This document shows positions 16,529 to 32,357 of a DNA stretch of 64,000 nt, in pieces. Source of the stretch: a virus. Taxonomy: Duplodnaviria > Heunggongvirae > Uroviricota > Caudoviricetes. How positions within the stretch are numbered: the first letter of the stretch is position 1; each line of letters starts with the position of its first letter. The stretch is taken from positions 17,261 through 81,260 of the IMG/VR virus record IMGVR_UViG_2932604667_000002; one strand, written 5' to 3'. The position numbers and the translations under genes are program-made. Below the pieces are notes generated by a model. That model worked only from the letters and a program-made list of their open reading frames with translations. It did not search any database and was not told the DNA's origin.

Positions 16529-16796
16529 CAGCGTCGCCGCCTTCCAGCTCGGCCACGCGACGCGCCAGACGATCAGCCCGGACGATGTTGACCTGGGCAG
16601 ACGTCATGAGACCCCAGCAGATGGCCACCAGGCCGAACACGACCGCCTCCAGCTCTGCGCCGACCGCCCCGACACTGAGCACCACCAGGCCAACCAGAGT
16701 CAGCACCTGGGCCGCGAACTCCACACGCGCCATCGCCGGCGTACGGCCGCTCCGCGCCAGGAACGCCTCCCACCTGGCCCGCAGGTCACTCTCCAT
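16512..16796 (-). CDS. membrane protein (94 aa, 2 TM)
   Basis: GGGGAGA SD; stop codon lies inside the -35 of cassette 16473. Confidence 0.5.
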   Translation of the reverse strand: MESDLRARWEAFLARSGRTPAMARVEFAAQVLTLVGLVVLSVGAVGAELEAVVFGLVAICWGLMTSAQVNIVRADRLARRVAELEGGDADCHGS

Positions 16797-17352
16797 CGAC
16801 GATCTCCCCTTCCACGATGTTCTCCAGCGCGCCGCTCGCGCCCAGGTACTCGGCATGCAGTCTCGCGGCCAGGTCCGCGATCGTCGCGCCGTGCTCGACT
16901 TGGATCGGCCCGCCGCCGGGGCCGGACACCTCGATCGGCTGCCGGCGGCCCCACCGGTCGTGAAACCGCCTGGCGAGGAGTTCCAGGCCGACGCGCCCGT
17001 CCGCGGGTGCGATCTGTTCCTCGGTCTCTACGGTGCCGTCCGGCCTGGTCCGGGTAACCCGCTTGACGACGTAGCCGCCGATCGCTGCCTTCATCACCGA
17101 CCCGGCGACGACCCGCACCTCGACCTCGTCACGCGCGCGGTAGAGATCCTGGCGAAACTGGCGTTTCCATGCGGGGGCTCCGGAGGCTTCGGCTTCTCGG
17201 AGCCAGCGGTAGAGGGTGGATTCGTCGATACCAGCGGCTCCGGCGGCGCCTTCGAAGGTGGCGCCCGCTCGTACGGCCGCGACGATCCGTTCGTGGACGT
17301 CGGCCGTGAGCTTCGTGCGCCGTCCATGGCGCTGTGCCGGTGGGGCTGTCAT
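16786..17352 (-). CDS. helix-turn-helix DNA-binding protein (188 aa)
   Basis: HTH GATFEGAAGAAGIDESTLYRWL (transposase/terminase-small-subunit-like N-domain); no SD; CGCGACCTTAAC motif about 30 nt upstream. Confidence 0.45.
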   Translation of the reverse strand: MTAPPAQRHGRRTKLTADVHERIVAAVRAGATFEGAAGAAGIDESTLYRWLREAEASGAPAWKRQFRQDLYRARDEVEVRVVAGSVMKAAIGGYVVKRVTRTRPDGTVETEEQIAPADGRVGLELLARRFHDRWGRRQPIEVSGPGGGPIQVEHGATIADLAARLHAEYLGASGALENIVEGEIVDGE

Positions 17353-17379
17353 AGCCCGGTAAAGGTAGGTGGCCCGGAC

Positions 17380-18543: not shown

Positions 18544-19413
18544 TTACGCGGCTACCTGTCCGGCGGCCTGCCGGCAGGTCCGGTCCTTCGGGTACGGCTG
18601 GGCGGGCATGGCGATCGTCACGCGGCGGCGCTGGGCCTTGGTGCCGAGCCGGAAGAGGTAGCGGTGGTTGCCCGGGTGGTGGAGCGTCCGGACGTGGGCC
18701 TCGGCTCGGGCCTGGCGTAGCCAGTCGGCTCCGCTCTGGTCAGGGAGCCGGGGGGCGGCTCCGTGTGAGATGAGGAGCCGCTCGACGTACTCGTGGCCGC
18801 ACTCGCCCTTGGTGACCTTGGCGAGGGCGCGGTTCGACAGGGTGGTGCCGTCGGGGAGCAGGACGCGGGTCCCGGCCGTGCTGCGGCCGGCGTAGTCGGC
18901 GTTCGCTGCCTGGTAGATGGCGCCGCGGTGGCCGGTGAACACGGTGTGGCCGTCGATGGTGGTCCGGGGCAGGGGGTCGGCGAAGGAGACCAGGCCGCGG
19001 ACTCCCTGCTCGGCGGCCAGGCGGAACGCTTCGGCCAGGAAGAACGTCTCCCCGTTTCCGGGGACGTCGTCGGTCAGGACGAACCTGCCGAGTTCCAGGG
19101 ACTGGCTGTAGGCGTCCAGGTGGGGGAAGGCGTTGGTCAGGGTGCGCCGGTTGGTGGGGACGGACAGGACGGCGACGCCGACCAGGCGGGGGCTGGTCTT
19201 CACGTCCCACAGGCCGTAGCGGTGGACGGCGGCCGGGTAGGTGCCGCTGTAGTGGAGGCCGGTGACGAAGGTTTTCGCGTCGGCCTCGGGGAGCGGGGTG
19301 ACGCCGTAGCGGTCCCGGTCGAAGCCGCCTTCGTGGCGGTGTCGCCAGGAGTGGCGTCGGCCGGGGGACCAGCGCTGGCACCAGTCGGAGGCGGGGGACA
19401 GCTCGCGGGTCAT
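18544..19413 (-). CDS. hypothetical protein (289 aa) coupled to PAPS-reductase-like gene
   Basis: ATGA overlap with 19410..20324. Confidence 0.5.
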   Translation of the reverse strand: MTRELSPASDWCQRWSPGRRHSWRHRHEGGFDRDRYGVTPLPEADAKTFVTGLHYSGTYPAAVHRYGLWDVKTSPRLVGVAVLSVPTNRRTLTNAFPHLDAYSQSLELGRFVLTDDVPGNGETFFLAEAFRLAAEQGVRGLVSFADPLPRTTIDGHTVFTGHRGAIYQAANADYAGRSTAGTRVLLPDGTTLSNRALAKVTKGECGHEYVERLLISHGAAPRLPDQSGADWLRQARAEAHVRTLHHPGNHRYLFRLGTKAQRRRVTIAMPAQPYPKDRTCRQAAGQVAA

Positions 19414-20324
19414 GCTGTCACCTGTTCGGCGGCCTGGCGGGCGGCGGCGTCGATGTAGAACTTGATGGAGCGCTTGTGCTTGAACAGGTGGTTGATCCGC
19501 TGCTCCAGGTCGAGGTACTCCTGCGCGAGGTCGGGGCGGAGCAGGCAGGCGAGGGTGAGGTCGGCGACGGCGCCGAGGACGCAGATCGAGCAGGACAGGC
19601 GGGACATCCCGGCGTCGTAGGCCCAGTGCCATTCCAGGTCGTTCTCACGGTGGCAGTCCCAGACCTGCTCCAGCGTCCAGGAGTGGACGATGCGCCAGGT
19701 CCACACCGACCTCTTGGTCTTGTTGCTGGCCGGCCGGTTGAACTCGAACGCGGGCTTGCGCTTCCTCGCGGTCGACTCCTCGCCGCGCTCCCCGTTGACG
19801 TCGAGGATCCGGACCTTGCGGCCGAGGTTCGCGGCGCGGACGAGTTCGGTGAACAGCTTGTGCTTGGGGCCGCGCTTCTGCTCGCTCGTGCAGTGCCGGT
19901 TGTCCGCGTCGGGGAACTTCCCGTACTGCTCGATCTGCTGCAGCAGGTCACCCTGGGTGCGGCTGCGGACGAAGAACGGCAGCCCGTTGGCGGCGGCCTG
20001 CCGCTCGGCCACGCCCTTGGCGCTGGGGCGGTCGCCGAACCGTTCGACCAGGGTGGCGCCGAACACCGTGCGGTAGTGGTCGGCGTGGACGGCGTCGAGG
20101 TCGGCGGTGCCGGGCCATTCCACGCGGCCGAGGTCGTTGTGCAGGACGACGATGCGGTCCCGGACGCCGGCGGTGTCGGCCTCCTTCAGGAGCTCCTGCA
20201 GGGCGACGGTGGAGTCCTTACCGCCGCTGTGGTTGAGCACGATGATGTCGAAGTAGCCCAGGTTCGGCTGGTGCGGGCCGGTCTCGTCCAGGTGGATCGC
20301 GGTCCAGCGGGTCATCGTCTGCAT
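19410..20324 (-). CDS. PAPS-reductase-family PP-loop protein
   Basis: NHSGGKDSTV PP-loop, C-terminal CSIC. Confidence 0.6.
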   Translation of the reverse strand: MQTMTRWTAIHLDETGPHQPNLGYFDIIVLNHSGGKDSTVALQELLKEADTAGVRDRIVVLHNDLGRVEWPGTADLDAVHADHYRTVFGATLVERFGDRPSAKGVAERQAAANGLPFFVRSRTQGDLLQQIEQYGKFPDADNRHCTSEQKRGPKHKLFTELVRAANLGRKVRILDVNGERGEESTARKRKPAFEFNRPASNKTKRSVWTWRIVHSWTLEQVWDCHRENDLEWHWAYDAGMSRLSCSICVLGAVADLTLACLLRPDLAQEYLDLEQRINHLFKHKRSIKFYIDAAARQAAEQVTA

Positions 20325-20325
20325 G

Positions 20326-20637
20326 TCAGGCCGCCTTGTCGGTCAGCGGCTCGAAGCCGGAGTCATCGGCGGGCAGGTCGACGACGAAGGAGGCGCCCGG
20401 GTACGGCTGGCGCTCCACGGTGCAGTCGTAGGTGAAGAGCCACACCTGCAGGGCCTGCCAGCCGGTGAAGCGGAGCCACTCGGCGGGGGAGCCGGGCGCG
20501 TAGATGATGATCTCGCCGTCGGTGCGGCAGTAGCCGATGGTGTGGCCGCTGAAGTGGCGCGAGATGAGTTCCGCGGACCAGTCGGTGCCGGTCTCCTGTG
20601 ATGTTTCGTCGAGCCGGTAGTCGCCCCGGTAAAGCAT
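20326..20637 (-). CDS. hypothetical protein (103 aa)
   Basis: first gene after cassette 20652. Confidence 0.55.
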   Translation of the reverse strand: MLYRGDYRLDETSQETGTDWSAELISRHFSGHTIGYCRTDGEIIIYAPGSPAEWLRFTGWQALQVWLFTYDCTVERQPYPGASFVVDLPADDSGFEPLTDKAA

Positions 20638-20651
20638 GAGTCCTCCTGCGG

Positions 20652-20715
20652 TGGTCGGGTCGCTCTCCCAACACCTCTGATAGTACCGGTATTTAACCGT
20701 GTTGGCGCTAGCTGT
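20652..20715 (-). promoter_or_regulatory. promoter/leader-hairpin cassette
   Basis: core GTACCGGTATTTAA; TGGCGCTAGCTG. Confidence 0.65.
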
Positions 20716-21535
20716 GGAAGATCTCTGCCTGGACGTACTCCGGTCGCTGGGCGGCCCTCAGGACGCGCTCGTACCAGGCGAGGGCGAAGGTCATGCAGTT
20801 GGCTTCGTTCTTGTGGCTGGTCGAGCCGCACTGTGTGGGGGTGCGGCGGCCCTGGTAGCTCCAGGCCATGGAGTCGGCGGTGGTGAGCCACCGGCCGTAC
20901 CGCTCCAGGCCGTGAATCTTGACGCCGAAGCCGTGCAGGGGCAGGTCCCTGGCGGCGAGGGTGCGGAAGATCTCGCCGATCTCGGCGGAGTGCTGGCGGC
21001 GGCAGACGGAGCCGACACCGACGACGGGCCAGTCTTCGGCCAGGCGGACGCCGGCGGCCTCGTACAGGTCGACGCAGCGCAGGTAGTCGTCGATCGTCCA
21101 GCCCTGAATGACGGGCATGACGGGGCAGTCTCCGTATCCGTACTGCGGCCACAGCTCGACCAGGAGGACGAAGTTGTCGACGGTGCGCCGCTGGTGCTCG
21201 GCGACGGTGAGGCCGGTCCTGGCGAGCATGTCAGGCTCGCACATCCAGTCCTGCGGCGCTGCCCAGCCGATGTCGCCGATCTCGTCGTCGTAGCGCGCGA
21301 GCGCCTGGATGTACTGCTCGGGCGTTGTGGTGAACTCGCCGTACATGGACAGCTCGGTGAAGGCTCCGGAGTCGACCGCGTAGTGCCGGCCGGGCGGCGC
21401 CTTCGGGAGGGTCTTGCGGCCGGCGAGGATCCGGTGCGACACGAACAGGGACACCTCGATCGGAGCGATGGTCAGCCATCGCTCGCGGTGGGTTCCGAGG
21501 TAGAAGTTGAGCTCTGTCTCTTCGTCGCAGATCAC
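20708..21535 (-). CDS. dpdA: tRNA-guanine-transglycosylase-fold protein, DpdA-like (paralog 1)
   Basis: DSGAF (cf. TGT DSGGFQ), VMPVIQG (cf. GIVQGG); clearly homologous to 29387..30289. Confidence 0.5.
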   Translation of the reverse strand: MICDEETELNFYLGTHRERWLTIAPIEVSLFVSHRILAGRKTLPKAPPGRHYAVDSGAFTELSMYGEFTTTPEQYIQALARYDDEIGDIGWAAPQDWMCEPDMLARTGLTVAEHQRRTVDNFVLLVELWPQYGYGDCPVMPVIQGWTIDDYLRCVDLYEAAGVRLAEDWPVVGVGSVCRRQHSAEIGEIFRTLAARDLPLHGFGVKIHGLERYGRWLTTADSMAWSYQGRRTPTQCGSTSHKNEANCMTFALAWYERVLRAAQRPEYVQAEIFHS

Positions 21536-21571
21536 GGCGAGTCGGCCTTTCGCGGGGTCTCTGGTCGGGGG

Positions 21572-22678
21572 TCAGGCGGCGAACAGGGGAGCCTGGACCC
21601 AGTCCTGTTCGCCGGCGGGGTAGATGGTGGCGAGGTAGTCGCGGACGAGGGGCTCCCAGTCCATGGCGAGGGCTGTGCCGAGGACCGCGGCGGCGACCGG
21701 CGGGGCGACGACGTCGGCGATCTGCAGGAACGCCTTGCTGTTCGAGCCCTGCCACGGGTAGTCCGGCGGGAAGCCGTTTAACACTCCGGCCTCGGCTGGG
21801 GTGAGGCGGCGGCCGTCGGCGTCGCGTTCCCAGGAGCGGGCGCTGCCGGTGAGGCACCAGCACGGCCCGTCGGCGGAGAACAGGTTGCCGCCGCCGCCCT
21901 GCATGTTGCCTCGGGTCCGGACCTTGTGGCCGGGTTCCCAGTTGAGGGCTTGGGCCATGGTGGGGCCGGTGAACAGTGGCGGGGTGGGCTCTAAGTCCCG
22001 GGGAGGGGCTCCGAAGCGGCTGCAGATGAGCCCGGAGCGGAACGGAAGGTTGCCGAGGCGGGGGATGTAGTCCCTGGTGGCGATGAAGAACGTGCGTGAG
22101 CGTCGGGCGACGAGGCCGAGGTCTTCGGCGTGGATGGTGAGAACGTAGGCGATTTCAAAGCGGGCGTTGGTGACCATCTCGAAGGCCATCTCGACCCAGT
22201 AGTCGTGCGCGTTGGGGACCTGCTCGGCGATGAGGCAGACCAGGTTCGGCAGGCGCATCCCGAAGCGAATGTTCTCCAGCAGCAGGGCGGTGCGGGGGTC
22301 GGTGACCCGGTCGAACGCTTCGGTGTAGGCGGGGCACGGGTCTTCGCCGGGGTAGGACAGGGCGGCGATCCCGTCCATGATGACCGCGCGGTCGTGAGCC
22401 TTGGTGCCGGTAAGTAATCCGCTCCGGCTGAGGGTCGGGCACGGGGAGGAGATGAGCGCCAAGGTCACGTCTGGGAAGTCCTCGGGGTCGAGCGTGCGCA
22501 CGTCGGCCTGCGTGCGGAGGAACCCGGCGGCGCGGGCGGTCGCGCATGCGTCGCGGTCGATTTCGTAGCCGTGGATCGGGTCGCGCATCTTGAGGATGCG
22601 GCCGCCCTGATCCCAGCCAGCGGGGCCGGCGAACAGATCGATGTTCGTGATGCGCTCACGAGTGTCGTGTGCCGCCAT
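21572..22678 (-). CDS. DNA (cytosine-5) methyltransferase
   Basis: motif I DLFAGPAG, PC motif SSPCP, ENI motif. Confidence 0.65.
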   Translation of the reverse strand: MAAHDTRERITNIDLFAGPAGWDQGGRILKMRDPIHGYEIDRDACATARAAGFLRTQADVRTLDPEDFPDVTLALISSPCPTLSRSGLLTGTKAHDRAVIMDGIAALSYPGEDPCPAYTEAFDRVTDPRTALLLENIRFGMRLPNLVCLIAEQVPNAHDYWVEMAFEMVTNARFEIAYVLTIHAEDLGLVARRSRTFFIATRDYIPRLGNLPFRSGLICSRFGAPPRDLEPTPPLFTGPTMAQALNWEPGHKVRTRGNMQGGGGNLFSADGPCWCLTGSARSWERDADGRRLTPAEAGVLNGFPPDYPWQGSNSKAFLQIADVVAPPVAAAVLGTALAMDWEPLVRDYLATIYPAGEQDWVQAPLFAA

Positions 22679-22683
22679 GGGGA

Positions 22684-22986
22684 TCAGGCGGCGGTGCTGC
22701 GCGACGCGGCGGCCAGGCGGGCGGCGCCGACGATCGCGGCCACAGCGGACTTGGCGGCGGCGCCGTCCACGGCGGCGACGGCCCAGGCGGTGAACGCGGC
22801 GTCGACCTCGGGGTGGCGGTGCTCAAGCACGTCGATGATGGCGGCCCGTGCGGCGTTCTCCTGGGCGGTGCGCTCGGTGTTGGTGTCGAGCTCCTCCAGG
22901 GTGTCGCACAGGGCGTCGGTGGGCTGGGCGTCGGCGAGGGCTCGCAGCTCGGGGTCGATCTCGGGGAAGCTGTCGCGGCTGATCAT
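22684..22986 (-). CDS. hypothetical protein (100 aa)
   Basis: AAGGAA SD. Confidence 0.5.
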   Translation of the reverse strand: MISRDSFPEIDPELRALADAQPTDALCDTLEELDTNTERTAQENAARAAIIDVLEHRHPEVDAAFTAWAVAAVDGAAAKSAVAAIVGAARLAAASRSTAA

Positions 22987-23014
22987 CGGGGTGGTTCCTT
23001 CCAGGGGGAGGGGG

Positions 23015-23362
23015 TCAGCGGGGAAGGTGGCAGGCGAGGACGAGACCTTCCTCGGTGTAGACGGCGCTGAAGAACCGGCGGTCACCGCGGTGGGACTCGA
23101 CGATCTCGTGCAGCTTGTTCGCGAGGGCCTTGACGGGCTCGGAGGCGACCTTGCGCGGCCCCCAGGTCCCGTCGCCGGTCTCGAAATAGGTCCACTCGTC
23201 CGGGGCACCCTTGATGTAGACGTTGACGGAGGATCCCTGCGAGTAGGTCTCCATGCGGACGGAGAACGTGATGCCGGCGGGGTGCTCGGGGAGGGTTCCG
23301 GCCTTGGCGGCGGCGCGGATGTCGGCGCGGACGCGGGCGGTGACGTTCTTCAGGGGTTCCAT
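23015..23362 (-). CDS. hypothetical protein (115 aa)
   Basis: first gene after cassette 23386; AAGGAGG SD. Confidence 0.55.
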   Translation of the reverse strand: MEPLKNVTARVRADIRAAAKAGTLPEHPAGITFSVRMETYSQGSSVNVYIKGAPDEWTYFETGDGTWGPRKVASEPVKALANKLHEIVESHRGDRRFFSAVYTEEGLVLACHLPR

Positions 23363-23385
23363 GGGGTGCCTCCTTGGTGCGGGGT

Positions 23386-23452
23386 GTCGGGTCGCTCTCC
23401 CAACACCTCTGAATGTACCGGTATTTAGGAGCTGTGGCAACGGCGGTGGGGC
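23386..23452 (-). promoter_or_regulatory. promoter/leader-hairpin cassette
   Basis: core GTACCGGTATTTAG; TGGCAAC. Confidence 0.65.
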
Positions 23453-23456
23453 GGGG

Positions 23457-23771
23457 TTACCAGGGCGTGGCGGGAAGGGTTCGGATGGTGTCGCGCGTGG
23501 TGGGGCGGGCGATCAGGTACGGGGTGACGTGGCTTCCGCGGTTGAACTTCAGGGGGAGGGCCTCCTGGCAGTGGCTGCAGCGGCGGGCCACCAGGACGCA
23601 GCCGACGAACACGGCGCGGGTGTGGTGGTCGGTCGGGTGGTGGAAGTGGGGGGCCAGGGCGATGTTCAGGTCGAAGCACGCCTCGCAGTCGCGGAAGTAG
23701 CTGTCGCCGTCGGCGGTGGCGTCGTTGGTGTGGCAGGTCGCGCACTTGGGGGCGGTGGCGGTTCCGTTCAT
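23457..23771 (-). CDS. zinc-finger protein (104 aa)
   Basis: first gene after cassette 23791; CATCH...CEAC...CSHC. Confidence 0.55.
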   Translation of the reverse strand: MNGTATAPKCATCHTNDATADGDSYFRDCEACFDLNIALAPHFHHPTDHHTRAVFVGCVLVARRCSHCQEALPLKFNRGSHVTPYLIARPTTRDTIRTLPATPW

Positions 23772-23790
23772 GGTGGTCCTCCTGGTGGGG

Positions 23791-23848
23791 CCGGGTCGCT
23801 CTCCCGGACACACCTCGAACGTACCCGTATCTAACTGGTCTGGCAACG
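23791..23848 (-). promoter_or_regulatory. promoter/leader-hairpin cassette (stem CCGGG/CCCGG)
   Basis: CCGGG-TCGCTCT-CCCGG; core GTACCCGTATCTAA; TGGCAAC. Confidence 0.6.
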
Positions 23849-23921
23849 CGAAAACGGCCCGCCACCTGCGAAGATGGCGGGCCGTCCGCGCAACGTCAGC
23901 TCTGCCGCAGTCCTCGTGGTC

Positions 23922-24107
23922 TTACGACCATTTGCCGATGACCATGGTCTTGGCCCATGGGTACCGCTTCCGCCGGTCGATGACGATGTCGTGGTTATCC
24001 ATGAGCACGACCTCGTCGGGGGTGAGGTTGTCGCTCGCGAACTGCTCGCAAACCTTCTCCCGGATCTCCTGCTTCTTGGCTTCTCGCTCGCGCTCGGACT
24101 GGGCCAT
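23922..24107 (-). CDS. small protein (61 aa)
   Basis: GAGGAG SD. Confidence 0.45.
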   Translation of the reverse strand: MAQSEREREAKKQEIREKVCEQFASDNLTPDEVVLMDNHDIVIDRRKRYPWAKTMVIGKWS

Positions 24108-24205
24108 CTTGGGCTCCTCTCGGGGATAGATGGGTGGGGCGGCCGCCGCGGGCGCCTCACCCCGACACAAGGCTGGGAGAGTGCCCGCAGCGGCGGCGCC
24201 GGGGG

Positions 24206-24457
24206 TCAGACGGTGAGGAGCGGGCGCTCCGAAACGACGTGCACGGCGGTGGCGCCCCTCATCACCTCGCGCCAGGTCATCGGCTCCGACCAGCCGCCGT
24301 CGGGGGCGTGCTCCCACCAGTGGGCGCCGGTGGGGGCGTCGTCCTTGGCGGCCTGCTCGTCGTCGCGCCAGATCGCCAGCAGGGCGTCGGTCTTGGTGAC
24401 GAGGACGAGGCGGCTCTTGTTGTCGGGCTCGGGGATGACGTCGGCGAGGGTGGACAT
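24206..24457 (-). CDS. hypothetical protein (83 aa)
   Basis: AAGGAGAAG SD. Confidence 0.5.
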   Translation of the reverse strand: MSTLADVIPEPDNKSRLVLVTKTDALLAIWRDDEQAAKDDAPTGAHWWEHAPDGGWSEPMTWREVMRGATAVHVVSERPLLTV

Positions 24458-24522
24458 GGTCTTCTCCTTCTCTCGGGGGAGTGCGTGGTGTGTTGGATGT
24501 GCTGGTCGGGAGGTCGGGTTGG

Positions 24523-24771
24523 TCAGGTGCGGCGCAGGGCGAGCGGCTGGCCGACGGGGTAGATGGCCCAGGCGTCCTTGATGGCGACCGCCCATTCGAC
24601 GGGGTCGGCCTCGTAGTCGCCACCGGGGAACCAGCGCGCCTCGAAGTTCTCCGAGCCGCCCATGTTGGCGGCGATGTCGTTGCGGGCGATGACGGTCATC
24701 TGGGTGCCGACGTGGATGACGAGGCGGGTCGTGTCCGGCGGCTCGGGCAGGAGGATGTCGGAGGGGTTCAC
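24523..24771 (-). CDS. hypothetical protein (82 aa, GTG)
   Basis: GTGA overlap. Confidence 0.45.
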   Translation of the reverse strand: MNPSDILLPEPPDTTRLVIHVGTQMTVIARNDIAANMGGSENFEARWFPGGDYEADPVEWAVAIKDAWAIYPVGQPLALRRT

Positions 24772-25196
24772 GCGATCAGTCCCCTGTTCTGGGCGTGCTC
24801 GCGGAGCGCGTCCAGGGCGTGGCCTCCGCTCAGCCACCACTCTCGGCAGGCAGTGACGCCCAGGCCGGTGTGCGCGGAGAGGCGGTTGATCAGAGTAAGG
24901 GTGTCGGTGTGGTGCGCGTTGGTGTGGGAGAACAGGCGGCCGATCTGCTCGGGCGTCCAGCCGCGCGGCGCTGCGGCGGGCGCGCTGAGCGCGTTGTGAG
25001 TCAGGGCGAGCACGGTCCGCAGGATGTGCAGCACCTCGTCGGGCGTGGTCGGCGTCTGCAGGAGGCGGCGCCACTCGTCGGCGAGCTCGGTGGCGGCCTC
25101 GTGCTCGGCGTCGCCGCTGGAGCTCTGGGCCGCGGTGTCGAAGGCGTTGACGGCGTCGGCGACGTCCTTCAGGTACTTCGGCGCGCTGGTGATCAT
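24768..25196 (-). CDS. hypothetical protein (142 aa)
   Basis: ATGA overlap. Confidence 0.5.
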   Translation of the reverse strand: MITSAPKYLKDVADAVNAFDTAAQSSSGDAEHEAATELADEWRRLLQTPTTPDEVLHILRTVLALTHNALSAPAAAPRGWTPEQIGRLFSHTNAHHTDTLTLINRLSAHTGLGVTACREWWLSGGHALDALREHAQNRGLIA

Positions 25197-25417
25197 TCGT
25201 CGTCGTCCTCGTTGTCCTCGTTGTCCTCGCAGTACTGCTCGTAGGCGGCTGCCTCGGCGCCGTCTGGGCTGTCGGCCTCCACGGTGGTGGCGTAGCGCTG
25301 GAAGTCGCCGCTGTCGGACTCGCTGTCGACGCAGTTGTGGTCGCCTTCGATCACGCCGGCGACAAGGAATTCGTCCGCGTCGGGGTCGACGAGGGCGAAC
25401 ACGGTGTAGATGGTCAT
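25193..25417 (-). CDS. acidic protein (74 aa)
   Basis: AAGGAG SD; C-terminal DNEDNEDDDE. Confidence 0.5.
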   Translation of the reverse strand: MTIYTVFALVDPDADEFLVAGVIEGDHNCVDSESDSGDFQRYATTVEADSPDGAEAAAYEQYCEDNEDNEDDDE

Positions 25418-25647
25418 CGGATGGGCTCCTTTGCGGTTGAGTCGGCGAACATGCGCTCGCCCCAGGGGCCGAGCTTTCGGCACTCGGGGGAGCACCACAG
25501 GCGGCCGGTGCTCGGCTCGTAGATCCAGCCGTCGGCGACGGCGAGGTCGCGGATGTCGTCGGCGCTCACGCCGTCCTCGGCGGGGTCGTAGGACTCCATG
25601 CAGCCGTCGCACTCGGCGATGGGGACCGTTCGGCGTTCGATGGCCAC
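25414..25647 (-). CDS. Cys-containing protein (77 aa, GTG)
   Basis: GGGAG SD. Confidence 0.45.
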   Translation of the reverse strand: MAIERRTVPIAECDGCMESYDPAEDGVSADDIRDLAVADGWIYEPSTGRLWCSPECRKLGPWGERMFADSTAKEPIR

Positions 25648-25650
25648 GCT

Positions 25651-26025
25651 CTACTCCCAGTCCTCGGGCCGGAAGATCGGGACGTCGAGGTTGTCCCAGT
25701 TGGTGACGTGGTGCTCGCAGGTGACCGGTCCCCAGGTGCGGGCGATGGTGGAGCGGACGCGGTCCTGGTCCCGCAGGTGGGTGAGGGTGGGGTCGAAGGT
25801 GGTCTCGGCGACGAGCTGGCCGCCCTCGTAGAACGGGGGCTCGCCGCGCCAGTTGGCTCCGGTCTCGCCGTTGTCGATGTAGCGGACGCCCTCGTAGTAA
25901 AGGATGCGGCCGCCTGGGTTCTTGCGGGGCCGCCAGACGGCGGTGCGGGTGGTGCCGTCGGGGTGCGGCTCGATGCGGTAGACGTACAGGTGGCCCTCGA
26001 TGGGCCGGGAGTCCAGGTCGTTCAT
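25651..26025 (-). CDS. hypothetical protein (124 aa)
   Basis: ATGA overlap. Confidence 0.5.
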   Translation of the reverse strand: MNDLDSRPIEGHLYVYRIEPHPDGTTRTAVWRPRKNPGGRILYYEGVRYIDNGETGANWRGEPPFYEGGQLVAETTFDPTLTHLRDQDRVRSTIARTWGPVTCEHHVTNWDNLDVPIFRPEDWE

Positions 26026-26255
26026 CGGGGCTCTCCTTCGGCGGTCAGGGTGCGCAGCAGGTCCCGGGGGTCGGTCATGACCTCGTCGGGGCCGGTGCGC
26101 GCGGTCGCCAGGTCGCCCGTGGGGGAGTAGCTGGCGTGGATGGTCTGGTCGTCGCGGGTGTAGGTGACGGTGTGGTCGTCGCCCGCATTGGGCCGAGCGA
26201 TGGCCCATCTGTTTCGGCGGGCCACCGCGTTCAGCGCGGTGATTTCGCTGCCCAT
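26022..26255 (-). CDS. hypothetical protein (77 aa)
   Basis: first gene after cassette 26273. Confidence 0.5.
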   Translation of the reverse strand: MGSEITALNAVARRNRWAIARPNAGDDHTVTYTRDDQTIHASYSPTGDLATARTGPDEVMTDPRDLLRTLTAEGEPR

Positions 26256-26272
26256 GCAGCCTCCAGTCCGGG

Positions 26273-26320
26273 TGTCGGGTCGCTCTCCCAACACGGCTGA
26301 TTGTACCGGTATCTAGACGG
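26273..26320 (-). promoter_or_regulatory. promoter/leader-hairpin cassette (no TGGCAA box)
   Basis: core GTACCGGTATCTAG. Confidence 0.55.
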
Positions 26321-26684
26321 ATGCGGGCGGCTCGTCCAGCATCTGGAGGCGGGTCCAGGTGAGCAGGAGTTCGAGGGCCACGTACACGCCCTCGTCGCCG
26401 TCCCTCTGCTGCATGGTGGCGAGGGCGGGGGCCATATGGTCCAGGTGCTGGGTGTAGCAGCGGCCGCCGGGCAGGATCGCGCAGTCGTGCTGGACGAGGT
26501 CGCCGGTGGGGTTCAGACGGTGGACGCTGATCAGGCGTTCGCTCACGGTCGCGCCGAAACCCGCGGCCTGGAACAGGGGGAACGTCGTGTGGGTGGCGGC
26601 GTTCTCTCCGTCGGTGACGGTGTACGTCTTCTCGCCGGTCGCATCGTTGGCGTCCAGCTTCCGGGTCGGGGTGTTGGTGTCCAT
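26313..26684 (-). CDS. hypothetical protein (123 aa)
   Basis: first gene after cassette 26703. Confidence 0.55.
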   Translation of the reverse strand: MDTNTPTRKLDANDATGEKTYTVTDGENAATHTTFPLFQAAGFGATVSERLISVHRLNPTGDLVQHDCAILPGGRCYTQHLDHMAPALATMQQRDGDEGVYVALELLLTWTRLQMLDEPPASV

Positions 26685-26702
26685 CGTGGACCTCCTTGTT
26701 GT

Positions 26703-26760
26703 GGTCGGGTCGCTCTCCCAACACCCCTGATGGTACCGGTATTTAGTCAGGCTGGCGCCC
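26703..26760 (-). promoter_or_regulatory. promoter/leader-hairpin cassette
   Basis: core GTACCGGTATTTAG; TGGCGCC. Confidence 0.65.
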
Positions 26761-27400
26761 CTGTGCTGTCGAGGAGTTGGAAGAACTCGGCGCGTACGGC
26801 GGGGTCCTCGCGGAAGACGCCGGCGAGGTGAGAGGTGACCATGGCCGCGCCGGTCGCCCGAGCTCCACGCAGCGTCATGCAGGAGTGGACGGAGCGGATC
26901 ACGCAGGCCGCTCCGAGGATGTCGAGGTTGTCGGCGATGGCGGCCACGATCTGGTCGCCGAGTTTCTCCTGCATCTGTGGCCGGGCGGCGTACTCCTGGG
27001 TGATGCGGGCGAACTTCGACAGGCCCAGGACCTTTGCGCCTGGGGATGGGATGTAGCTGATGGAGGCCGTGCCGGTGAAGGGCAGGAGGTGGTGCTCGCA
27101 GATGGACACGAACGGAATCCCTGGCACCAGGATCATGCCGGGGTCGGGGCTCGGTGGCGGGAACGTCCGGGCGAGGTGGCGTGCCGGGTCCAGGGTCATG
27201 CCGCTGGTCAGCTCGGCCAGGGCGCGCACGAACCGTCCTGGGGTGTCGGCGGTGGACTCCTCGTCACACGGGATGCCGAGCGCGTCGAACATGTGCCGGG
27301 CGTGCCACTCCGCGCGGTTGTGCGGCGTGTCTTCGGTGAGCGCGTCGACGTAGTCGACGGCTTCGAGGATGGAGTAGACGTGGGTCTCGGGTGCGCCCAT
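26747..27400 (-). CDS. folE: GTP cyclohydrolase I
   Basis: FVSICEHHLLPF, GLSKFARI, QMQEKL motifs. Confidence 0.75.
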   Translation of the reverse strand: MGAPETHVYSILEAVDYVDALTEDTPHNRAEWHARHMFDALGIPCDEESTADTPGRFVRALAELTSGMTLDPARHLARTFPPPSPDPGMILVPGIPFVSICEHHLLPFTGTASISYIPSPGAKVLGLSKFARITQEYAARPQMQEKLGDQIVAAIADNLDILGAACVIRSVHSCMTLRGARATGAAMVTSHLAGVFREDPAVRAEFFQLLDSTGAPA

Positions 27401-28137
27401 CAGTGTCCTCTCTCGTCGCCCCAGAGGTGGATGTGGAGCCTCGGGGTGAAGTTGAACCGGTAGTGCAGCGCCCGGTCGATGATGCGGCGGGACACGTCGG
27501 CGAGCACGGACGCGCTCCGCCCCTCCGGCATGATCCACACGAGGCGGGAGGGGATGTCGTGGTCGACGGTCAGGCTGGCGACCTCGTCCACGTCGTCGGC
27601 GGTACGGCAGACGACCTTGAAGACGGCCTTGCCGCTGGCGTTGAACTCCCGCAGGGCCAGCGGGTTGATCCGCTTGGCCTCGAAGAGGTGGGAGTGCCCC
27701 AGCTTCGGGGACACGTTGAAGGCGTCGACCATGAGCACGCTCCGGCGGGTCGGCCGGACGGTGCCGTTGGTTTCGACCTCGATGCGGCGGCCCATGGCGG
27801 CCAGCCCGTCGAGGAGGAGGTCCCAGCCGTGCTGCTTCTGGTGGAGCAGCGGCTCGCCGCCGGTGATGACGACCATGCCGGCGCGGTGGCTCTCGACGGT
27901 CGTGAGGATCTCGGCGACGGGGACCCGCTGCAGTTCCTGGCGTAGGTCGAACCGGTCGGCGTCCCAGGTGTAGGCGGCATCGCACCAGGCACAGGCCAGA
28001 TTACAGCCGCTGAGCCGTACGAAGGAGGCTACGACGCCGAGCGATGGACCCTCGCCCTGGACGGTCGGGCCGAAGACTTCGGAGACGACGAGGGTCGTGT
28101 CTGTGGCGTGGGTGTCGGCGGTCGGTGTGGTGGTCAT
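27400..28137 (-). CDS. queE: 7-carboxy-7-deazaguanine synthase (radical SAM)
   Basis: CNLACAWCD, ITGGEPLL. Confidence 0.75.
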   Translation of the reverse strand: MTTTPTADTHATDTTLVVSEVFGPTVQGEGPSLGVVASFVRLSGCNLACAWCDAAYTWDADRFDLRQELQRVPVAEILTTVESHRAGMVVITGGEPLLHQKQHGWDLLLDGLAAMGRRIEVETNGTVRPTRRSVLMVDAFNVSPKLGHSHLFEAKRINPLALREFNASGKAVFKVVCRTADDVDEVASLTVDHDIPSRLVWIMPEGRSASVLADVSRRIIDRALHYRFNFTPRLHIHLWGDERGH

Positions 28138-28658
28138 GCGGGTGGGGCGCCTTCCTGTAGGAGGTGACGCAGCTCGTCCTGGGCCTGCGGTGGCAGGCCG
28201 GTCGGCTCGTCTTGGGCGGCCCATTCGGCGGCGTTGACGTGCGTCTCGCTGATGCGGACACGGGAGATGTGCGCGCCGGCGGCCAGCCCTGGGATCCCGT
28301 GGATCCAGGTGGCGGCCTGGGTGGCGATCAGGTGGGCGACCGCTTCGACCGTGGGCCAGGCGGCGCCTGGCCAGTCCTCTCCGAACACGAACACCTTCGA
28401 ATGGGCGGATCGGAGTGCGGAGACGAGGGGGTCTCGGTGGCCGAGCATAGCCCCGTGATCAAGGTGGGCGTCGATCCATCCGCGCATCGCTGCTTTGAAG
28501 AGGCCGAACTCGGCGACGGTGTAGTCCTCGGACAGGCCGGGGGCCAAGATGGTTACCTCTGCCCACCAGGAGTGGCCGTGCAGGCTCTGGCACTTGCCGC
28601 CGAGGTGGGGCAGGCGGTGGGCGGTCTCGAAGTTGTGCCGGCAGGTGACGGACGTCAT
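28134..28658 (-). CDS. queD: 6-carboxy-5,6,7,8-tetrahydropterin synthase
   Basis: CQSLHGHSW (CxxxHGH). Confidence 0.7.
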   Translation of the reverse strand: MTSVTCRHNFETAHRLPHLGGKCQSLHGHSWWAEVTILAPGLSEDYTVAEFGLFKAAMRGWIDAHLDHGAMLGHRDPLVSALRSAHSKVFVFGEDWPGAAWPTVEAVAHLIATQAATWIHGIPGLAAGAHISRVRISETHVNAAEWAAQDEPTGLPPQAQDELRHLLQEGAPPA

Positions 28659-29368
28659 GGCACCGCCGGGGCCTGGTAGGTGGTGGCGGCGTCGGCGTAG
28701 CCGGTGGGGTCGCCGACGCACGCTTCGGCGAACGCCTGGCGTCGTTCCTGGCAGGTGCCGCAGGTGCCGCAGTGGAGGTCACCGCCCTTGTAGCAGGACC
28801 AGGACAGGTACAGCGGCGCGTCGAGGTTGTGGCCGAGGTGGACGATGGCGGTCTTCGTCCAGCCGATGAACGGTGTTTCGACGGTGAAGCCGGGCCGGGC
28901 GAATCCTTCGTTGCCCAGGGCGACGGTGTCGCGGAACGCTTCGATGAAGGCGGGCCGGCAGTCCGGGTAGATGAAGTGGTCGCCGGCGTGGACGGCGGTG
29001 GCGATGCGGTCGCAGCCGCGGGCTACGGCGACGGCGGCCGCGGCGGAGAGCAGGACCATGTTGCGGTTCGGGACGACGGTGACCTTCATGGACGCTTCGG
29101 CGTAGTGGCCGTCGGGGACGGACACCGCGGTGTCGGTCAGCGCGGAGCCGGACAGGAGTTGGCCGAAGGCGCGCAGGTCGAGGGTGTCGTGGCGGATGCC
29201 GTAGTGGTCGGCGACGGCTCGCGCGGAGTCGAGCTCCCGGATGTGACGCTGGCCGTAGTCGACGGACAGGGCGTGCAGGTCGTCGCCGTTCTCGTAGTAG
29301 TGGGCCGCCAGGACGGTGGAGTCCAGTCCGCCGGACAGCAGGATGAGCGTCGTGGTCATGGCGGGCAT
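28655..29368 (-). CDS. queC: 7-cyano-7-deazaguanine synthase
   Basis: LLSGGLDST PP-loop, C-terminal 4-Cys site; alt. ATG 29359; no SD, CGCGACCTTAACC motif 15 nt upstream. Confidence 0.75.
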   Translation of the reverse strand: MPAMTTTLILLSGGLDSTVLAAHYYENGDDLHALSVDYGQRHIRELDSARAVADHYGIRHDTLDLRAFGQLLSGSALTDTAVSVPDGHYAEASMKVTVVPNRNMVLLSAAAAVAVARGCDRIATAVHAGDHFIYPDCRPAFIEAFRDTVALGNEGFARPGFTVETPFIGWTKTAIVHLGHNLDAPLYLSWSCYKGGDLHCGTCGTCQERRQAFAEACVGDPTGYADAATTYQAPAVP

Positions 29369-29382
29369 GCTCGCGATCGGGG

Positions 29383-29402
29383 GTGGTTAAGGTCGCGCCC
29401 TG
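29383..29402 (-). promoter_or_regulatory. second motif class GGTTAAGGTCGCGCCCTG upstream of queC
   Basis: 18/19 identical to copy at 30972. Confidence 0.4.
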
Positions 29403-30289
29403 GCATCGGCCGGGGTGGCGTCGGCGAGGTGTGCGTGGACGCCGGAGGCGCCGGCGGCGAGGTCATCGACGTTGGTGTCTGCGAGGTAGATGTGCGGGCC
29501 GGGCTGGTCCTCGGTGTGGCCGGGGATGGCGACGGGTCCGTGCCGGGCGCGGAGCCAGGTTTCGGCGCGGTGGAAGGCGGTGGCGGCCATGCGGCTCACC
29601 TCGTTGCGGGTGTAGGTCTTGCGGTCGGCCAGTCGTGCGGGGTCGCCGCCGTGGGCGCGGATGAGGTGGGTGTAGCGCCACACGTCCCGGCCTCCGATCT
29701 TGACGTTGATCCATCGGCTGCGGTGGTCGTCCCATAGCGCGACGGCGCCGAAGCGGTGGGCCTTGCTCCAGGAGGTGGAGTCGACGGAGTAGTACGGCAG
29801 GGCGGCGAGGTCTGTCCAGCGGGTCAGGCCCAGGCCGTGGAAGACGGCGCGGCCGCGGGCCTCGCGGAAGCAGCGGATCGCCCAGGGCATGACGGCTTTG
29901 TGGTGGCGTCCGACCAGGCCGCCGAGGCAGATGTAGGTGTATCCGGCGTCGAGGTAGCGGCGGAGTTCGGTGAAGTCGGATCCGGCGTGGAAGACAGGGA
30001 TGGGGCGGAGCCCTTCGGCTTCGAGCGCGCGCTGGTTACGCCAGGTCGCGGCCGGGTCTCCGATGACGTCGAGGTTGATGTAGTGCGTGATGTAGGGCTT
30101 CCACCTGTGGAGCCAGTCGGCGTACTCGTCGATATTGATCGCGGCGCCCTGGGTGTGAGCGGAGAACGCGCCGGAGTCGGCAAGGAAACGGTGCCCGGGG
30201 CCGAGCCTGCGGGTGAAGGCGGCGATGTCGACACTGCGGAAGTAGTGGAAGGACCCCAGCGCTTTGAAGCCCTCGCGCGGGGTGCTCAT
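29387..30289 (-). CDS. dpdA: DpdA-like transglycosylase (paralog 2)
   Basis: DSGAF, PVFHAG; ATGA overlap with ParB-like gene; adjacent to queC. Confidence 0.55.
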   Translation of the reverse strand: MSTPREGFKALGSFHYFRSVDIAAFTRRLGPGHRFLADSGAFSAHTQGAAINIDEYADWLHRWKPYITHYINLDVIGDPAATWRNQRALEAEGLRPIPVFHAGSDFTELRRYLDAGYTYICLGGLVGRHHKAVMPWAIRCFREARGRAVFHGLGLTRWTDLAALPYYSVDSTSWSKAHRFGAVALWDDHRSRWINVKIGGRDVWRYTHLIRAHGGDPARLADRKTYTRNEVSRMAATAFHRAETWLRARHGPVAIPGHTEDQPGPHIYLADTNVDDLAAGASGVHAHLADATPADARARP

Positions 30290-30954
30290 TCCTGCAGGGA
30301 CCTCATCTTGTTGAGCAGGGCGATGAAGCGCTCGGAGTCGTCGAACGCGCCGAACGGGTCGGTCAGGGTGTAGAAGTCGTCCTTGATGTTCGGCGGGACC
30401 TTGAAGCGCAGCGTCGGCCACATGTCGGCGTCGTCGGGCTCGCCGTACTCCTTCTCAAGGTCTTCCAGGGTGGGCGGGGCGCCCATGGTGGCGACCAGGT
30501 CTGCCAGGTCGTTGTGGCTGTAGCCGGTGAGGGGAAGCAGGTCGGGGTTGTCGTCGGCGATCTCGTCGAGGACTTCGGCGAGCAGCCGGTTGTCCCAGCC
30601 GCCGGTCTCTGAGAGCCGGTTGTCGGCGACCAGGTATGCCTCTGCTTCGGCGTCGGAGCGGGAGGACCAGCCGCGGACGATGGGGACGGCCCAGTCGTCG
30701 CCGTCGAGGTGGACGCCTTCGGGCGGTGTGGCGCCGGCGTCGCGCATCTCGGTGAGCGTATCCAGGCGGCCGTGCCCGGCGACGAGGCGGCCGGTGCGTT
30801 CGTCGAGCATGCCGGCGACCAGGCAGCCGAACTTCTCGATGGAGGCTCGGATGGCGGCGCTGTTGTGCGCTTTGGGGTTGCGGTTGGCCCGGGGGATGTC
30901 GTCGAGGCGGAGGTAGTCGACGTAGCGGCCCTTGGCCGGTGAGGTGGCGTTCAC
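30286..30954 (-). CDS. ParB-like nuclease-domain protein (DpdB-like)
   Basis: LVAGHGRL ParB/Srx motif; GTG start. Confidence 0.55.
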   Translation of the reverse strand: MNATSPAKGRYVDYLRLDDIPRANRNPKAHNSAAIRASIEKFGCLVAGMLDERTGRLVAGHGRLDTLTEMRDAGATPPEGVHLDGDDWAVPIVRGWSSRSDAEAEAYLVADNRLSETGGWDNRLLAEVLDEIADDNPDLLPLTGYSHNDLADLVATMGAPPTLEDLEKEYGEPDDADMWPTLRFKVPPNIKDDFYTLTDPFGAFDDSERFIALLNKMRSLQE

Positions 30955-31466: not shown

Positions 31467-32357
31467 CTACTTGGTCGGGGAGGTCATCTGGATGGATCCG
31501 CCCGAGGGCAGCGGCACGAACGGCGGGTGATCGCTGCTCTGGTAGATCTTGTAGAGGACGGCCCACTGTGCGCCGAGCACGCCCTCCAGTTGCCGCAGGG
31601 ATTTCATCTCGGTGTTGGTCCTGGCGTTGACTTGTTCCTGGACGGCCTTCTGGACCTTGGCGACCTGCTCGGCGGCGAGCGCCTCCTCCATCTCCTGCGG
31701 CGGGGAGGGCTTCTGCAGGACCAGCGTCGGCGAGCCGCAGTCCCCGGTCCCCTGGAAGGTCGGGGCGCAGAAGTAGTCGTCGCCGGCGAGCTCTCGGGTG
31801 TATTTGCTGGCGAGCTGGCCGACCTTGGTCGACCAGGCCGTGTAGGTCCTGGCGTCGTTGTAGAGGGCGCGCATGTTGTAGCCGGACGCGGCCTCCTTCA
31901 TGGCTCGCGCGAGCGGCTGGCCGAGGTAGGTGTTGACCAGCTTGTCCCACCCGTGCGGGTTGTTGTCGTCGGCGAAGTCGACCCCGTACCCCTTGGCGAT
32001 CCGCTCGTGGAAGGCGCGCAGCTTGTCGCAGGCCGTGTTGAGCGCGAAGTTGGCCGCCCCGGGCACGGTCATCTTGACGTTGTCGCGGGACACGATCTCG
32101 ATCGGGCCGGCCTGCGCGCCGTCCTCGCTGTCGAAGCGGTAGGCGAGCTGGCCGCGCCGGTAGACGTAGGCGGAGTCGTCCCAGCCCAGGGGCTGGACCT
32201 TGTTCGGCGGGATGCAGCGTAGGAAGGAAACGCCCTCGATCGGGCCGCCGGAGTAGTTGAGGGCGATCTCGTTGGCGTCGGTCTGGGCGCACGCCGCGGC
32301 GAGCAGGGCAGCGGCGGCCAGGGCCAGGGCGAGGCGCCCCGCCGTGGTGGTGGTCAT
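31467..32357 (-). CDS. lipoprotein (296 aa)
   Basis: signal peptide with LAAC lipobox. Confidence 0.65.
   Translation of the reverse strand: MTTTTAGRLALALAAAALLAAACAQTDANEIALNYSGGPIEGVSFLRCIPPNKVQPLGWDDSAYVYRRGQLAYRFDSEDGAQAGPIEIVSRDNVKMTVPGAANFALNTACDKLRAFHERIAKGYGVDFADDNNPHGWDKLVNTYLGQPLARAMKEAASGYNMRALYNDARTYTAWSTKVGQLASKYTRELAGDDYFCAPTFQGTGDCGSPTLVLQKPSPPQEMEEALAAEQVAKVQKAVQEQVNARTNTEMKSLRQLEGVLGAQWAVLYKIYQSSDHPPFVPLPSGGSIQMTSPTK

Follow-up and report, generated by a model that had tools for sequence, protein, structure and literature searches.

A Rosebush-type preQ0 cassette and an Orion-type DpdA on one phage-like replicon of Microtetraspora fusca

We analysed a stretch of 64,000 nt of DNA (the window; positions 17,261 to 81,260 of the IMG/VR record IMGVR_UViG_2932604667_000002), which is part of a phage-like element of about 152 kb from the actinomycete Microtetraspora fusca. 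Between window positions 18544 and 30954 lie eleven genes that encode a pathway to the modified base preQ0 (7-cyano-7-deazaguanine), two DpdA proteins and further candidate DNA-modification enzymes. The unusual feature of the locus is the presence of two different DpdA subfamilies together with a preQ0 pathway in one replicon, and the element is the sole such case in the searches that we made. All eleven genes are read from the minus strand, and their coordinates agree, exactly or to a few codons, with those of an initial annotation made from the sequence alone; the starts were picked by the jump in GC content at third codon positions. In the order of their transcription, with the best family matches (E-values unless stated otherwise) and motifs in brackets, the genes are:

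30286-30954, minus strand: ParB-like protein, 222 amino acids (aa) (phrog_620, 1.4e-25)
29387-30289, minus strand: DpdA-a, 300 aa (phrog_887, 1.5e-47; phrog_7068, 3e-43)
28655-29368, minus strand: QueC, preQ0 synthase with a PP-loop, 237 aa (Pfam QueC, 1.8e-62; SGGLDS; C-terminal Cys cluster)
28134-28658, minus strand: QueD, carboxytetrahydropterin (CPH4) synthase (Pfam PTPS, 3.2e-21; phrog_2389, 1.5e-28; TIGR03367, 1e-14; C-x3-HGH)
27400-28137, minus strand: QueE, radical S-adenosylmethionine enzyme, 7-carboxy-7-deazaguanine (CDG) synthase (phrog_2076, 7.3e-59; best NCBIfam match TIGR03365, 7.7e-29; C-x3-C-x2-C as CNLACAWC)
26747-27400, minus strand: FolE, GTP cyclohydrolase I (Pfam, 1.1e-51; NF006826, 179 bits against a cut-off of 162; CEHH)
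21572-22678, minus strand: C5-cytosine methyltransferase of the Dcm type (Pfam DNA_methylase, 1e-14; phrog_116, 9.5e-32; PADLOC MTase_II, 2e-16)
20708-21535, minus strand: DpdA-b, 275 aa (Pfam DpdA PF23859, 6.1e-94)
20326-20637, minus strand: 103-aa open reading frame (ORF), first gene of its unit (high third-position GC; GGAGG ribosome-binding site; promoter-like motif upstream)
19410-20324, minus strand: PP-loop protein resembling 3'-phosphoadenosine 5'-phosphosulfate (PAPS) reductase, 304 aa (Pfam PAPS_reduct, 4.4e-7; phrog_424, 7.9e-23; PADLOC BrxP, 4e-14, and DndC, 2.5e-4)
18544-19413, minus strand: Mom-family protein of the GCN5-related N-acetyltransferase (GNAT) fold, 289 aa (Pfam Mom PF25680, 1.3e-23; phrog_1384, 2.9e-33)

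The preQ0 cassette, DpdA-a and the ParB-like protein

The first module runs from 30954 to 26747 in the order ParB-like, DpdA-a, QueC, QueD, QueE, FolE. The family assignments of the pathway enzymes in Pfam, PHROGs and NCBIfam are strong and their motifs are legible in the translations, so that FolE, QueD, QueE and QueC, judged from their sequences, form a complete GTP-to-preQ0 pathway with intact signature motifs, as the initial annotation had stated. QueC is a standalone protein with no fused amidotransferase, which suggests that the pathway stops at preQ0. The coupling of these genes by ATGA overlaps, claimed for the whole operon, holds for queC/queD and queD/queE, but the queE/folE junction reads TGATG with an overlap of 1 nt. 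The ATGA overlap between the ParB-like gene and dpdA-a is present as described, as are the motifs DSGAF and PVFHAG of DpdA-a and GHGRL of the ParB-like protein, and a further ATGA overlap joins the PAPS-reductase-like gene to the 289-aa gene.

DpdA-a is found by PHROGs and by the PADLOC DpdA model but is not recognised by Pfam, and a phmmer search of the PDB with the single sequence gave no match. When the profile of its relatives is aligned to the bacterial DpdA structure 7UI4, D38 falls on D95, F42 on F99 and D170 on D256 (a tag of 20 residues being allowed for), the residues that mutagenesis of the bacterial enzyme assigned to the acid/base (D95), the gate (F99) and the nucleophile (D256; PMC10164549). 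D38, D74 and D170 are invariant in 23 relatives. Its sequence identity is 41% with Cracklewink gp3 and 34% with Rosebush gp2, both from Mycobacterium phages; a scan of IMG/VR with DpdA-a found no close relatives.

The core of the locus is a further member of the known Rosebush-type dPreQ0 (the deoxynucleoside of preQ0) cassette. Genes gp1 to gp6 of Rosebush (group 2 of Hutinet 2019, PMC6884629) correspond one to one to the six genes here, in order as well as in orientation; their frames overlap and their DpdA is of the same subfamily, and neither cassette contains an amidotransferase or QueF, so that dPreQ0 is the expected product of both. The differences are that the Rosebush proteins are just 29-51% identical to those of the window, and that the Rosebush cassette adjoins the terminase at the genome end, whereas the cassette of the window lies in a non-structural region of the 152-kb element, behind a gene for an SPFH protein. 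Rosebush also contains no DpdA of the type of Orion, another mycobacteriophage, in the 49 kb checked, and tblastn with the Dcm-type, Mom-like and PAPS-reductase-like proteins of the window found nothing there either.

The gene order shared with Rosebush and the catalytic residues of DpdA-a bear out the initial claim of a phage-type preQ0 DNA-modification module. By analogy, FolE, QueD, QueE and QueC would turn GTP into preQ0 (unit 1, 33.5-26.7 kb), and DpdA-a would act as a DNA-guanine transglycosylase of the Rosebush/phage-DpdA1 kind, swapping guanine for preQ0 in double-stranded phage DNA after replication. In virion DNA of Rosebush about 28% of G is replaced by dPreQ0 (PMC6884629). The predicted product here is likewise dPreQ0, because no enzyme of the QueF, Gat, ArcS or DpdC type turned up; none of the tailoring enzymes QueF, Gat, ArcS, DpdC and DpdL/M/N was found in any family scan of the region. 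The absence of a tailoring enzyme from these scans also leaves the initial proposal of two different deazaguanine derivatives without support. The 12 small genes that separate the modules are all without a recorded Pfam match.

FolE, QueD, QueE and QueC are the trunk common to the queuosine, archaeosine and deazapurine antibiotic pathways (PMC6884629), and one could therefore assume that the que genes serve RNA or metabolites, such as tRNA queuosine or a deazapurine nucleoside, and not DNA. We consider this very improbable. The operon is translationally coupled to a DpdA gene, the like cassette of Rosebush gives dPreQ0 in DNA (PMC6884629), the element is a phage, and the genes called near the locus include no recognised QueF, QueA, QueG or bacterial-type Tgt.

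Related cassettes that lack QueC are found in Cracklewink (L003), S. anulatus (L056), Actinocrispum (L144) and S. halobius (L145), which otherwise retain the gene order; in all four, a 130-167-aa unannotated gene takes the place of QueC. This suggests a QueC-independent variant, perhaps with a CDG-type product, and such a variant was noted before for phage Bipper (PMC6884629). In S. anulatus two DpdA-a-type genes lie in tandem (L056, 10001-11865), and more than one DpdA per genome is therefore not unique in itself.

The ParB-like protein has no Pfam match. The profile of its family matches the ParB domain of Spo0J (6SDK, E 0.0014), and AGHGRL falls on the GERR box of this CTPase-fold domain. 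The GxxR arginine of the box is not kept in the homologues from Rosebush, Cracklewink and S. anulatus (GNHTL). The ParB-domain gene overlaps the start of a DpdA-a-type gene in each of the seven actinobacterial contexts examined, namely the window, Rosebush, Cracklewink, L057/58, S. anulatus (L056), Actinocrispum (L144) and S. halobius (L145). The sole PADLOC match of the protein is to the ParB-type N-terminus of the MTase_II model, and, cassette proteins aside, the sequence most closely related to it is the N-terminal domain of a protein in which ParB is fused to a methyltransferase (L055, 57%, tblastn).

The initial annotation had called this protein DpdB-like and the gene pair a dpdA-dpdB arrangement. 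A ParB-fold gene does stand beside dpdA-a, but the pair is the actinophage ParB-DpdA pair seen in Rosebush and not the bacterial one. In the bacterial Dpd system (Salmonella Montevideo; 7UI4; PMC10164549) a ParB-fold gene likewise lies directly upstream of a transglycosylase of the tRNA-guanine transglycosylase (TGT) fold with the same catalytic Asp pair. However, the bacterial DpdB is larger, and its hallmarks are a DGQQR NTPase motif and an alpha-helical C-terminal domain resembling the endonuclease domain of SspE (PMC10164549), whereas the protein in this phage context has 222 aa and AGHGRL in place of DGQQR, is without the SspE-like domain and is matched by no Dpd or Ssp model of NCBIfam or PADLOC, although the PADLOC DpdA model finds DpdA-a. 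We therefore reject its identity as DpdB. The likeness to dpdA-dpdB also recalls a bacterial restriction-modification defence island of the Dpd kind, as opposed to self-protection of a phage. With a partner that is not DpdB, no DpdC-K among the proteins tested, and tail, lysis and replication genes on the 152-kb phage-like element that carries the locus, we give this explanation hardly any credence. The ParB-like protein may be analogous to DpdB in function, with homology limited to the ParB fold; as a translationally coupled accessory it would help to load DpdA-a on DNA or to target it.

A second DpdA of the Orion type

The second DpdA had been described as a divergent paralog of the first. 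It is indeed a DpdA of the TGT fold, but not a diverged copy of DpdA-a: BLASTP between the two proteins detects no similarity beyond the DSGAF motif, and DpdA-b belongs to another clade. It is 52% identical to gp20 of Orion over the full length (E 5e-85), which places it in the "singleton" clade of mycobacteriophage DpdAs, and it scores 314.7 bits with Pfam PF23859 (DUF7221) against a gathering cut-off of 27. In Orion the gene is located at 15866-16642 and is absent from the first 12 kb and the last 50 kb. The relation between the two subfamilies becomes apparent when family profiles are compared; hhalign gives a probability of 95.6% and aligns the DSGAF Asp, the PV(I/F)(Q/H)G strand, HGxG and the nucleophile Asp.

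Searches of the PDB by sequence, with phmmer and with the profile of the DpdA-b family, were both without a match, and a structure model was therefore used. The AlphaFold2 model of DpdA-b (predicted local distance difference test, pLDDT, 91.6) has the DpdA structure 7UI4 as its best PDB match, and the next four matches are TGTs. D55, F59, D96, Q144 and D221 do not vary among 28 diverse relatives, and Orion gp20 and its clade share both these residues and the short TGT-core architecture of about 260-290 aa. Judged from the model, DpdA-b looks like an active guanine-type base-exchange enzyme with the TIM-barrel fold of TGT. On alignment both DpdAs keep the catalytic aspartates on which the initial annotation had made its proposal depend, and the profile searches it had named recover both (PF23859, 6.1e-94, and phrog_887, 1.5e-47) as well as the PAPS_reduct domain (4.4e-7).

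The DpdA-b clade comprises at least 7,792 proteins (E <= 1e-10). None of 32 IMG/VR loci and none of 80 loci from GTDB genomes with a DpdA-b relative contains QueC, QueD, QueE or DpdA-a within 10 kb; one GTDB locus (L065) has a lone divergent FolE near the DpdA-b relative. The DpdA-b-type genes of Peanam, Thyatira and the Sinorhizobium phage phiLM21 are likewise without que genes nearby. The window breaks this singleton property: its genome supplies preQ0 and a DpdA of another subfamily, with the complete que operon and DpdA-a 5-8 kb from DpdA-b on one replicon. Judged by the lengths of the longest contigs, the M. fusca contig alone is common to all 109 relatives of DpdA-a and the 120 closest relatives of DpdA-b (of at least 7,792). 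In the literature searched we found neither a phage described as having two DpdA subfamilies nor a function assigned to the Orion clade, which is not proof that there is none.

Two explanations compete for the role of DpdA-b. It may be an active second transglycosylase on the preQ0 made by the phage, which would work in another sequence context than DpdA-a or insert another 7-deazaguanine; a second sequence context would be the likeliest form of this. We regard this explanation as possible and put it forward tentatively, and on the condition that module 1 is active, the chances that DpdA-b uses preQ0 appear about even. The residues that bind guanine or 7-deazaguanine and exchange it in TGT and the bacterial DpdA are all invariant in the clade, the structure closest to the model is that of a preQ0 insertase, and an exchange of guanine for guanine would be futile. 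Alternatively, DpdA-b is no deazaguanine insertase and has a role that is independent of preQ0 (the exchange or removal of another base, or anti-defence), in which case its residence beside the que genes is coincidental and only DpdA-a acts. This too is possible, though we find it rather doubtful. It would agree with the results for Orion, whose DNA contained none of the deazaguanines assayed, while phages of this type have no que genes and their mycobacterial hosts no pathway (PMC6884629). Because none of the 112 loci of relatives has que genes nearby, the clade may do something unrelated to preQ0. The gene dpdA-b is also part of a separate transcription unit, where it is paired with the Dcm-type gene and not with que genes. 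However, many hosts of the clade, e.g., Sinorhizobium, could themselves supply preQ0 (a general statement in PMC6884629), and dpdA-b stands behind the same class of promoter as the que unit.

The singleton DpdAs of mycobacteriophages have been without known function since 2019, and the element offers a natural test bed: on the shared replicon each DpdA can meet the same que operon, and the modified motifs can be compared. If DpdA-b does act on preQ0, this would be the first function for an orphan DpdA clade of at least 7,800 proteins, and together with the Mom-type and Dcm-type enzymes and a possibly backbone-directed PAPS-reductase-like protein, three of the four DNA bases would be modified. 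If it does not act on preQ0, the locus amounts to a common Rosebush-like cassette with unrelated anti-restriction genes nearby.

Transcription units and the predicted cytosine- and adenine-directed modules

An intergenic motif of about 55-60 nt occurs in the window in 18 minus-strand copies at up to 3 mismatches, against 0 expected by chance. It consists of TTGCCA-N17-TAC..T, the hairpin GGTGTTGGG-AGAGCGA-CCCGACACC with a 9-bp stem, GGAGG and the start codon; it is thus placed just before the ribosome-binding site and the start, and it precedes most gene blocks. No Rfam family matches it. The motif may be either a promoter combined with a structure in the 5' untranslated region or an operator for a phage regulator. 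The copies and the genes that belong to the units they head are:

33452-33511, minus strand: motif copy at the head of the unit in which the que operon comes last, the next copy ending only at 26763
31467-32357, minus strand: SPFH/Band-7 family protein (Pfam, 2.5e-7), whose gene precedes the ParB-like gene in the promoter unit of the que cassette
23386-23445, minus strand: motif copy heading the dcm/dpdA-b unit (TTGCCA-17-TACATT in a sigma-70-like scan)
23015-23365, minus strand: first gene of the dcm/dpdA-b unit, weakly similar to LPD29 (sub-threshold Pfam match, E 8.6e-4)
20654-20713, minus strand: motif copy heading the unit of the 103-aa, PAPS-reductase-like and Mom-like genes (its hairpin GGUGUUGGG/CCCGACC folds as expected)
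Further copies, minus strand: 4495-4554, 6386-6445, 7163-7222, 8927-8986, 11789-11848, 12545-12604, 13428-13487, 16473-16532, 26274-26333, 26704-26763, 36100-36159, 36552-36611, 39497-39556, 40371-40430 and 54858-54917

Three copies of the motif put the que cassette, the dcm/dpdA-b pair and the PAPS-reductase-like and Mom-like genes into three units of one promoter class. LPD29 is a domain of polyvalent proteins with a predicted anti-defence role, and the 103-aa protein has no family match in the library scans, which included NCBIfam and PADLOC.

The C5-cytosine methyltransferase, which the initial annotation had correctly placed next to the second DpdA, lies 36 nt upstream of dpdA-b. Its motifs appear on the alignment with M.HaeIII as DLFAGPAGW (I), SPCP and DPCP (IV), AEQV (VI), RRSRTFF (VIII) and GFPPDY (X). 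Motif IV is represented by two consecutive segments, SSPCPTLSRSG and EDPCPAYTEA...DPRTALL (residues about 77-84 and about 113-135), both of which align to the PCQ catalytic loop of M.HaeIII; in motif VI a Q takes the place of the N of ENV. The order Dcm-then-DpdA-b is also found in an element of Planobispora siamensis (L055), and a C5-methyltransferase accompanies a DpdA-b-type gene in L084; in the closest relatives of DpdA-b this neighbour does not recur.

The 289-aa protein, listed as an unknown in the initial annotation, belongs to the Mom family (84.2 bits with PF25680 against a cut-off of 27.1). As a single enzyme, Mom of phage Mu takes glycine from Gly-tRNA(Gly) and attaches it to the adenine N6 of double-stranded DNA, giving 6-NcmdA; R111 and S124 are essential, and an insertion resembling a helix-turn-helix is needed for activity (PMC13219725). 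The window protein shares with Mu Mom (8BV8) the GNAT core, the essential Arg (here the invariant R110, which aligns with R111 of Mu) and N120 and E122 of the motif NSES, here NGET, but it is only about 26% identical, and S124 corresponds to T123. HGTV-1 and the closest relatives of the window protein have Thr at this position too. The subclade has two extra insertions, and a longer insertion (about residues 178-240) lies at the place of the helix-turn-helix-like insertion of Mu Mom. Part of it (about 203-240) resembles a single ankyrin repeat, and its best PDB sequence matches are designed ankyrins (E 1e-5). Also different from Mu is the coupling of the gene to one of the PAPS-reductase fold; no Com-type regulator was identified upstream, and no search aimed at one was made. 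By analogy with Mu, the 289-aa protein is probably a Mom-type enzyme for a glycyl-tRNA-dependent modification of adenine N6.

The protein coupled to it does have the PP-loop and fold of PAPS reductases. SGGKDS is invariant among its relatives, and the AlphaFold2 model (pLDDT 91.9) has as its best Foldseek matches in the PDB the reductases 2GOY and 2OQ2 for PAPS or adenosine 5'-phosphosulfate (APS), with probability 1.0. Among the PADLOC defence models it is nearest to BrxP and then DndC, while its scores with the NCBIfam DndC and BrxP models are far below the curated cut-offs, and no Dnd or BREX partner model matched any of the ten region proteins scanned. The SGGxDS PP-loop and the fold are common to phrog_424, BrxP and DndC, and phage versions are found in variable anti-defence regions (PMC13551039); the window protein is a standalone protein of 304 aa. 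An IMG/VR scan with it found no close relatives.

The initial annotation had taken these two proteins for a pair linked to the deazaguanine pathway, and one could envisage an integrated 12-kb pathway in which they modify the deazaguanine further once it is inserted, or provide DpdA-b with a second derivative. The translational coupling of the two genes agrees with this, as does the fact that QueC likewise uses PP-loop chemistry, and some relatives of DpdA-b adjoin PAPS-reductase-like genes (L134, L065, L081, L086) or Mom-like genes (L136, L047). However, such a pathway is very improbable. The 289-aa protein belongs to the Mom-family GNATs and is predicted to act on adenine, and the PAPS-reductase-like protein is nearest to BrxP/DndC and APS reductases and not to QueC. 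Relatives of the latter at 64-70% identity adjoin a DNA polymerase, an integrase or a HIT protein, without Mom or que genes. The closest Mom relatives adjoin an ArdC-type anti-restriction protein, a C5-methylase or a divergent PAPS_reduct gene 2.2 kb away (L016); five of six of their loci are without a close PAPS-reductase-like neighbour, as are the isolated phages with Mom-like genes. A conserved two-enzyme system of the two proteins was rejected on these neighbourhoods. The adjacency to DpdA-b, found at about 5 of the 112 loci, is probably background for anti-restriction islands.

Genes of the DpdA-b, PAPS-reductase-like, Mom-like, C5-methyltransferase and ArdC-like types occur in shuffled adjacency in actinobacterial prophages and IMG/VR contigs. 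A PAPS-reductase-like gene lies directly upstream of a DpdA-b-type gene in L134 (9126-10714), a Mom-like gene directly downstream of one in L136 (5694-7387), and further loci with shuffled neighbours are L065, L081, L086 and L047, and L014, L016 and L017 around 10001. This resembles the behaviour of anti-restriction islands, although the count of about 5 in 112 may not exceed the background. Because the pairing is not conserved, and because a phage PAPS reductase is reported to counteract Dnd (Piel 2022, cited in PMC13551039), we take the two proteins as independent anti-restriction modules; the PAPS-reductase-like protein would be an anti-defence or DNA-modification factor of the BrxP/DndC kind.

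The locus is thus probably not one integrated pathway but an anti-restriction island of mosaic composition, with three modules that have promoters of their own and are each of a known kind; the multilayer anti-restriction system first proposed is reasonable in the sense of such an island but not in that of one pathway. The island is predicted to target G by 7-deazaguanine, C by methylation and A by a Mom-type modification against host restriction. Its second unit would combine cytosine methylation with the insertion of preQ0 by DpdA-b, and its third would modify adenine at N6, with the PAPS-reductase-like protein acting on its own. Several points weigh against this interpretation. The analysis demonstrates gene content, fold, catalytic residues, synteny and distribution, whereas every chemical product, the substrate of DpdA-b and the part played by the ParB-like protein are ones that we infer. 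Orion, the single member of the DpdA-b clade that was tested, gave no deazaguanine, 0 of 112 loci of relatives have que genes within 10 kb, and dpdA-b lies 5.2 kb from folE in another transcription unit. The ParB-like partner may be dispensable, because phage DpdA2 enzymes are active alone in E. coli, and its GxxR Arg is not kept in the Rosebush-type homologues. The Mom-family protein has Thr for S124 and the extra insertions. As it stands, the locus illustrates how actinophage-like replicons stack modules for the modification of G, C and A behind one promoter class, which is useful for predicting restriction resistance and for handling such DNA in cloning and sequencing.

The element and its setting

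The proteins of the window are identical to those on contig JBIAXI010000024.1 (151,757 bp; NCBI assembly GCA_042896545.1) of Microtetraspora fusca (Streptosporangiales). Window position 20708 corresponds to position 3344 of this record and window position 4618 to position 138916. The window crosses both ends of the contig, with an overlap of about 95 bp and the junction near window positions 17270-17365; the replicon is therefore circular or circularly permuted, with a length of about 151.7 kb. The GC content of the window is 66-72% throughout. In INPHARED (50,697 phage genomes), megablast searches with the region and with 40-64 kb matched just short fragments of dpdA and queD, and there is thus no close nucleotide relative among the deposited phages.

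The contig encodes a distal tail protein (Dit), a 1554-aa tape-measure-like protein, an amidase endolysin, a single-stranded DNA-binding protein (SSB), RecT and an exonuclease. We conclude that the element is a large siphovirus-like phage or a phage-plasmid, with the modification island in an early or non-structural region. The following genes are of plasmid type:

40900-41916: ParA-like ATPase
46237-48357: FtsK/SpoIIIE-like ATPase
53417-54304: FtsK/SpoIIIE-like ATPase

Their presence together with tail, lysis and recombination genes makes the element a candidate phage-plasmid. A conjugative plasmid, which ParA and the FtsK-like proteins might indicate, was rejected as the sole description, given the tail, lysis and SSB genes on the same contig.

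Rfam and tRNA scans of the window found no RNA genes. Five tandem repeats of 27-33 nt (TGATGGGTCTGCTTGGCTGGACCCTTC), each with an internal inverted repeat, are located at 56825-56974, in or beside an ORF at 55739-57415 that adjoins a gene for a DnaA/IstB-like AAA+ protein (54975-55742); the repeats are iteron-like, and their site is a candidate replication origin. Local duplications of 89-222 nt with 77-88% identity (39641-39862 and 40068-40289; 7857-7945 and 8833-8921; 4515-4633 and 5804-5922) indicate tandemly duplicated small early genes.

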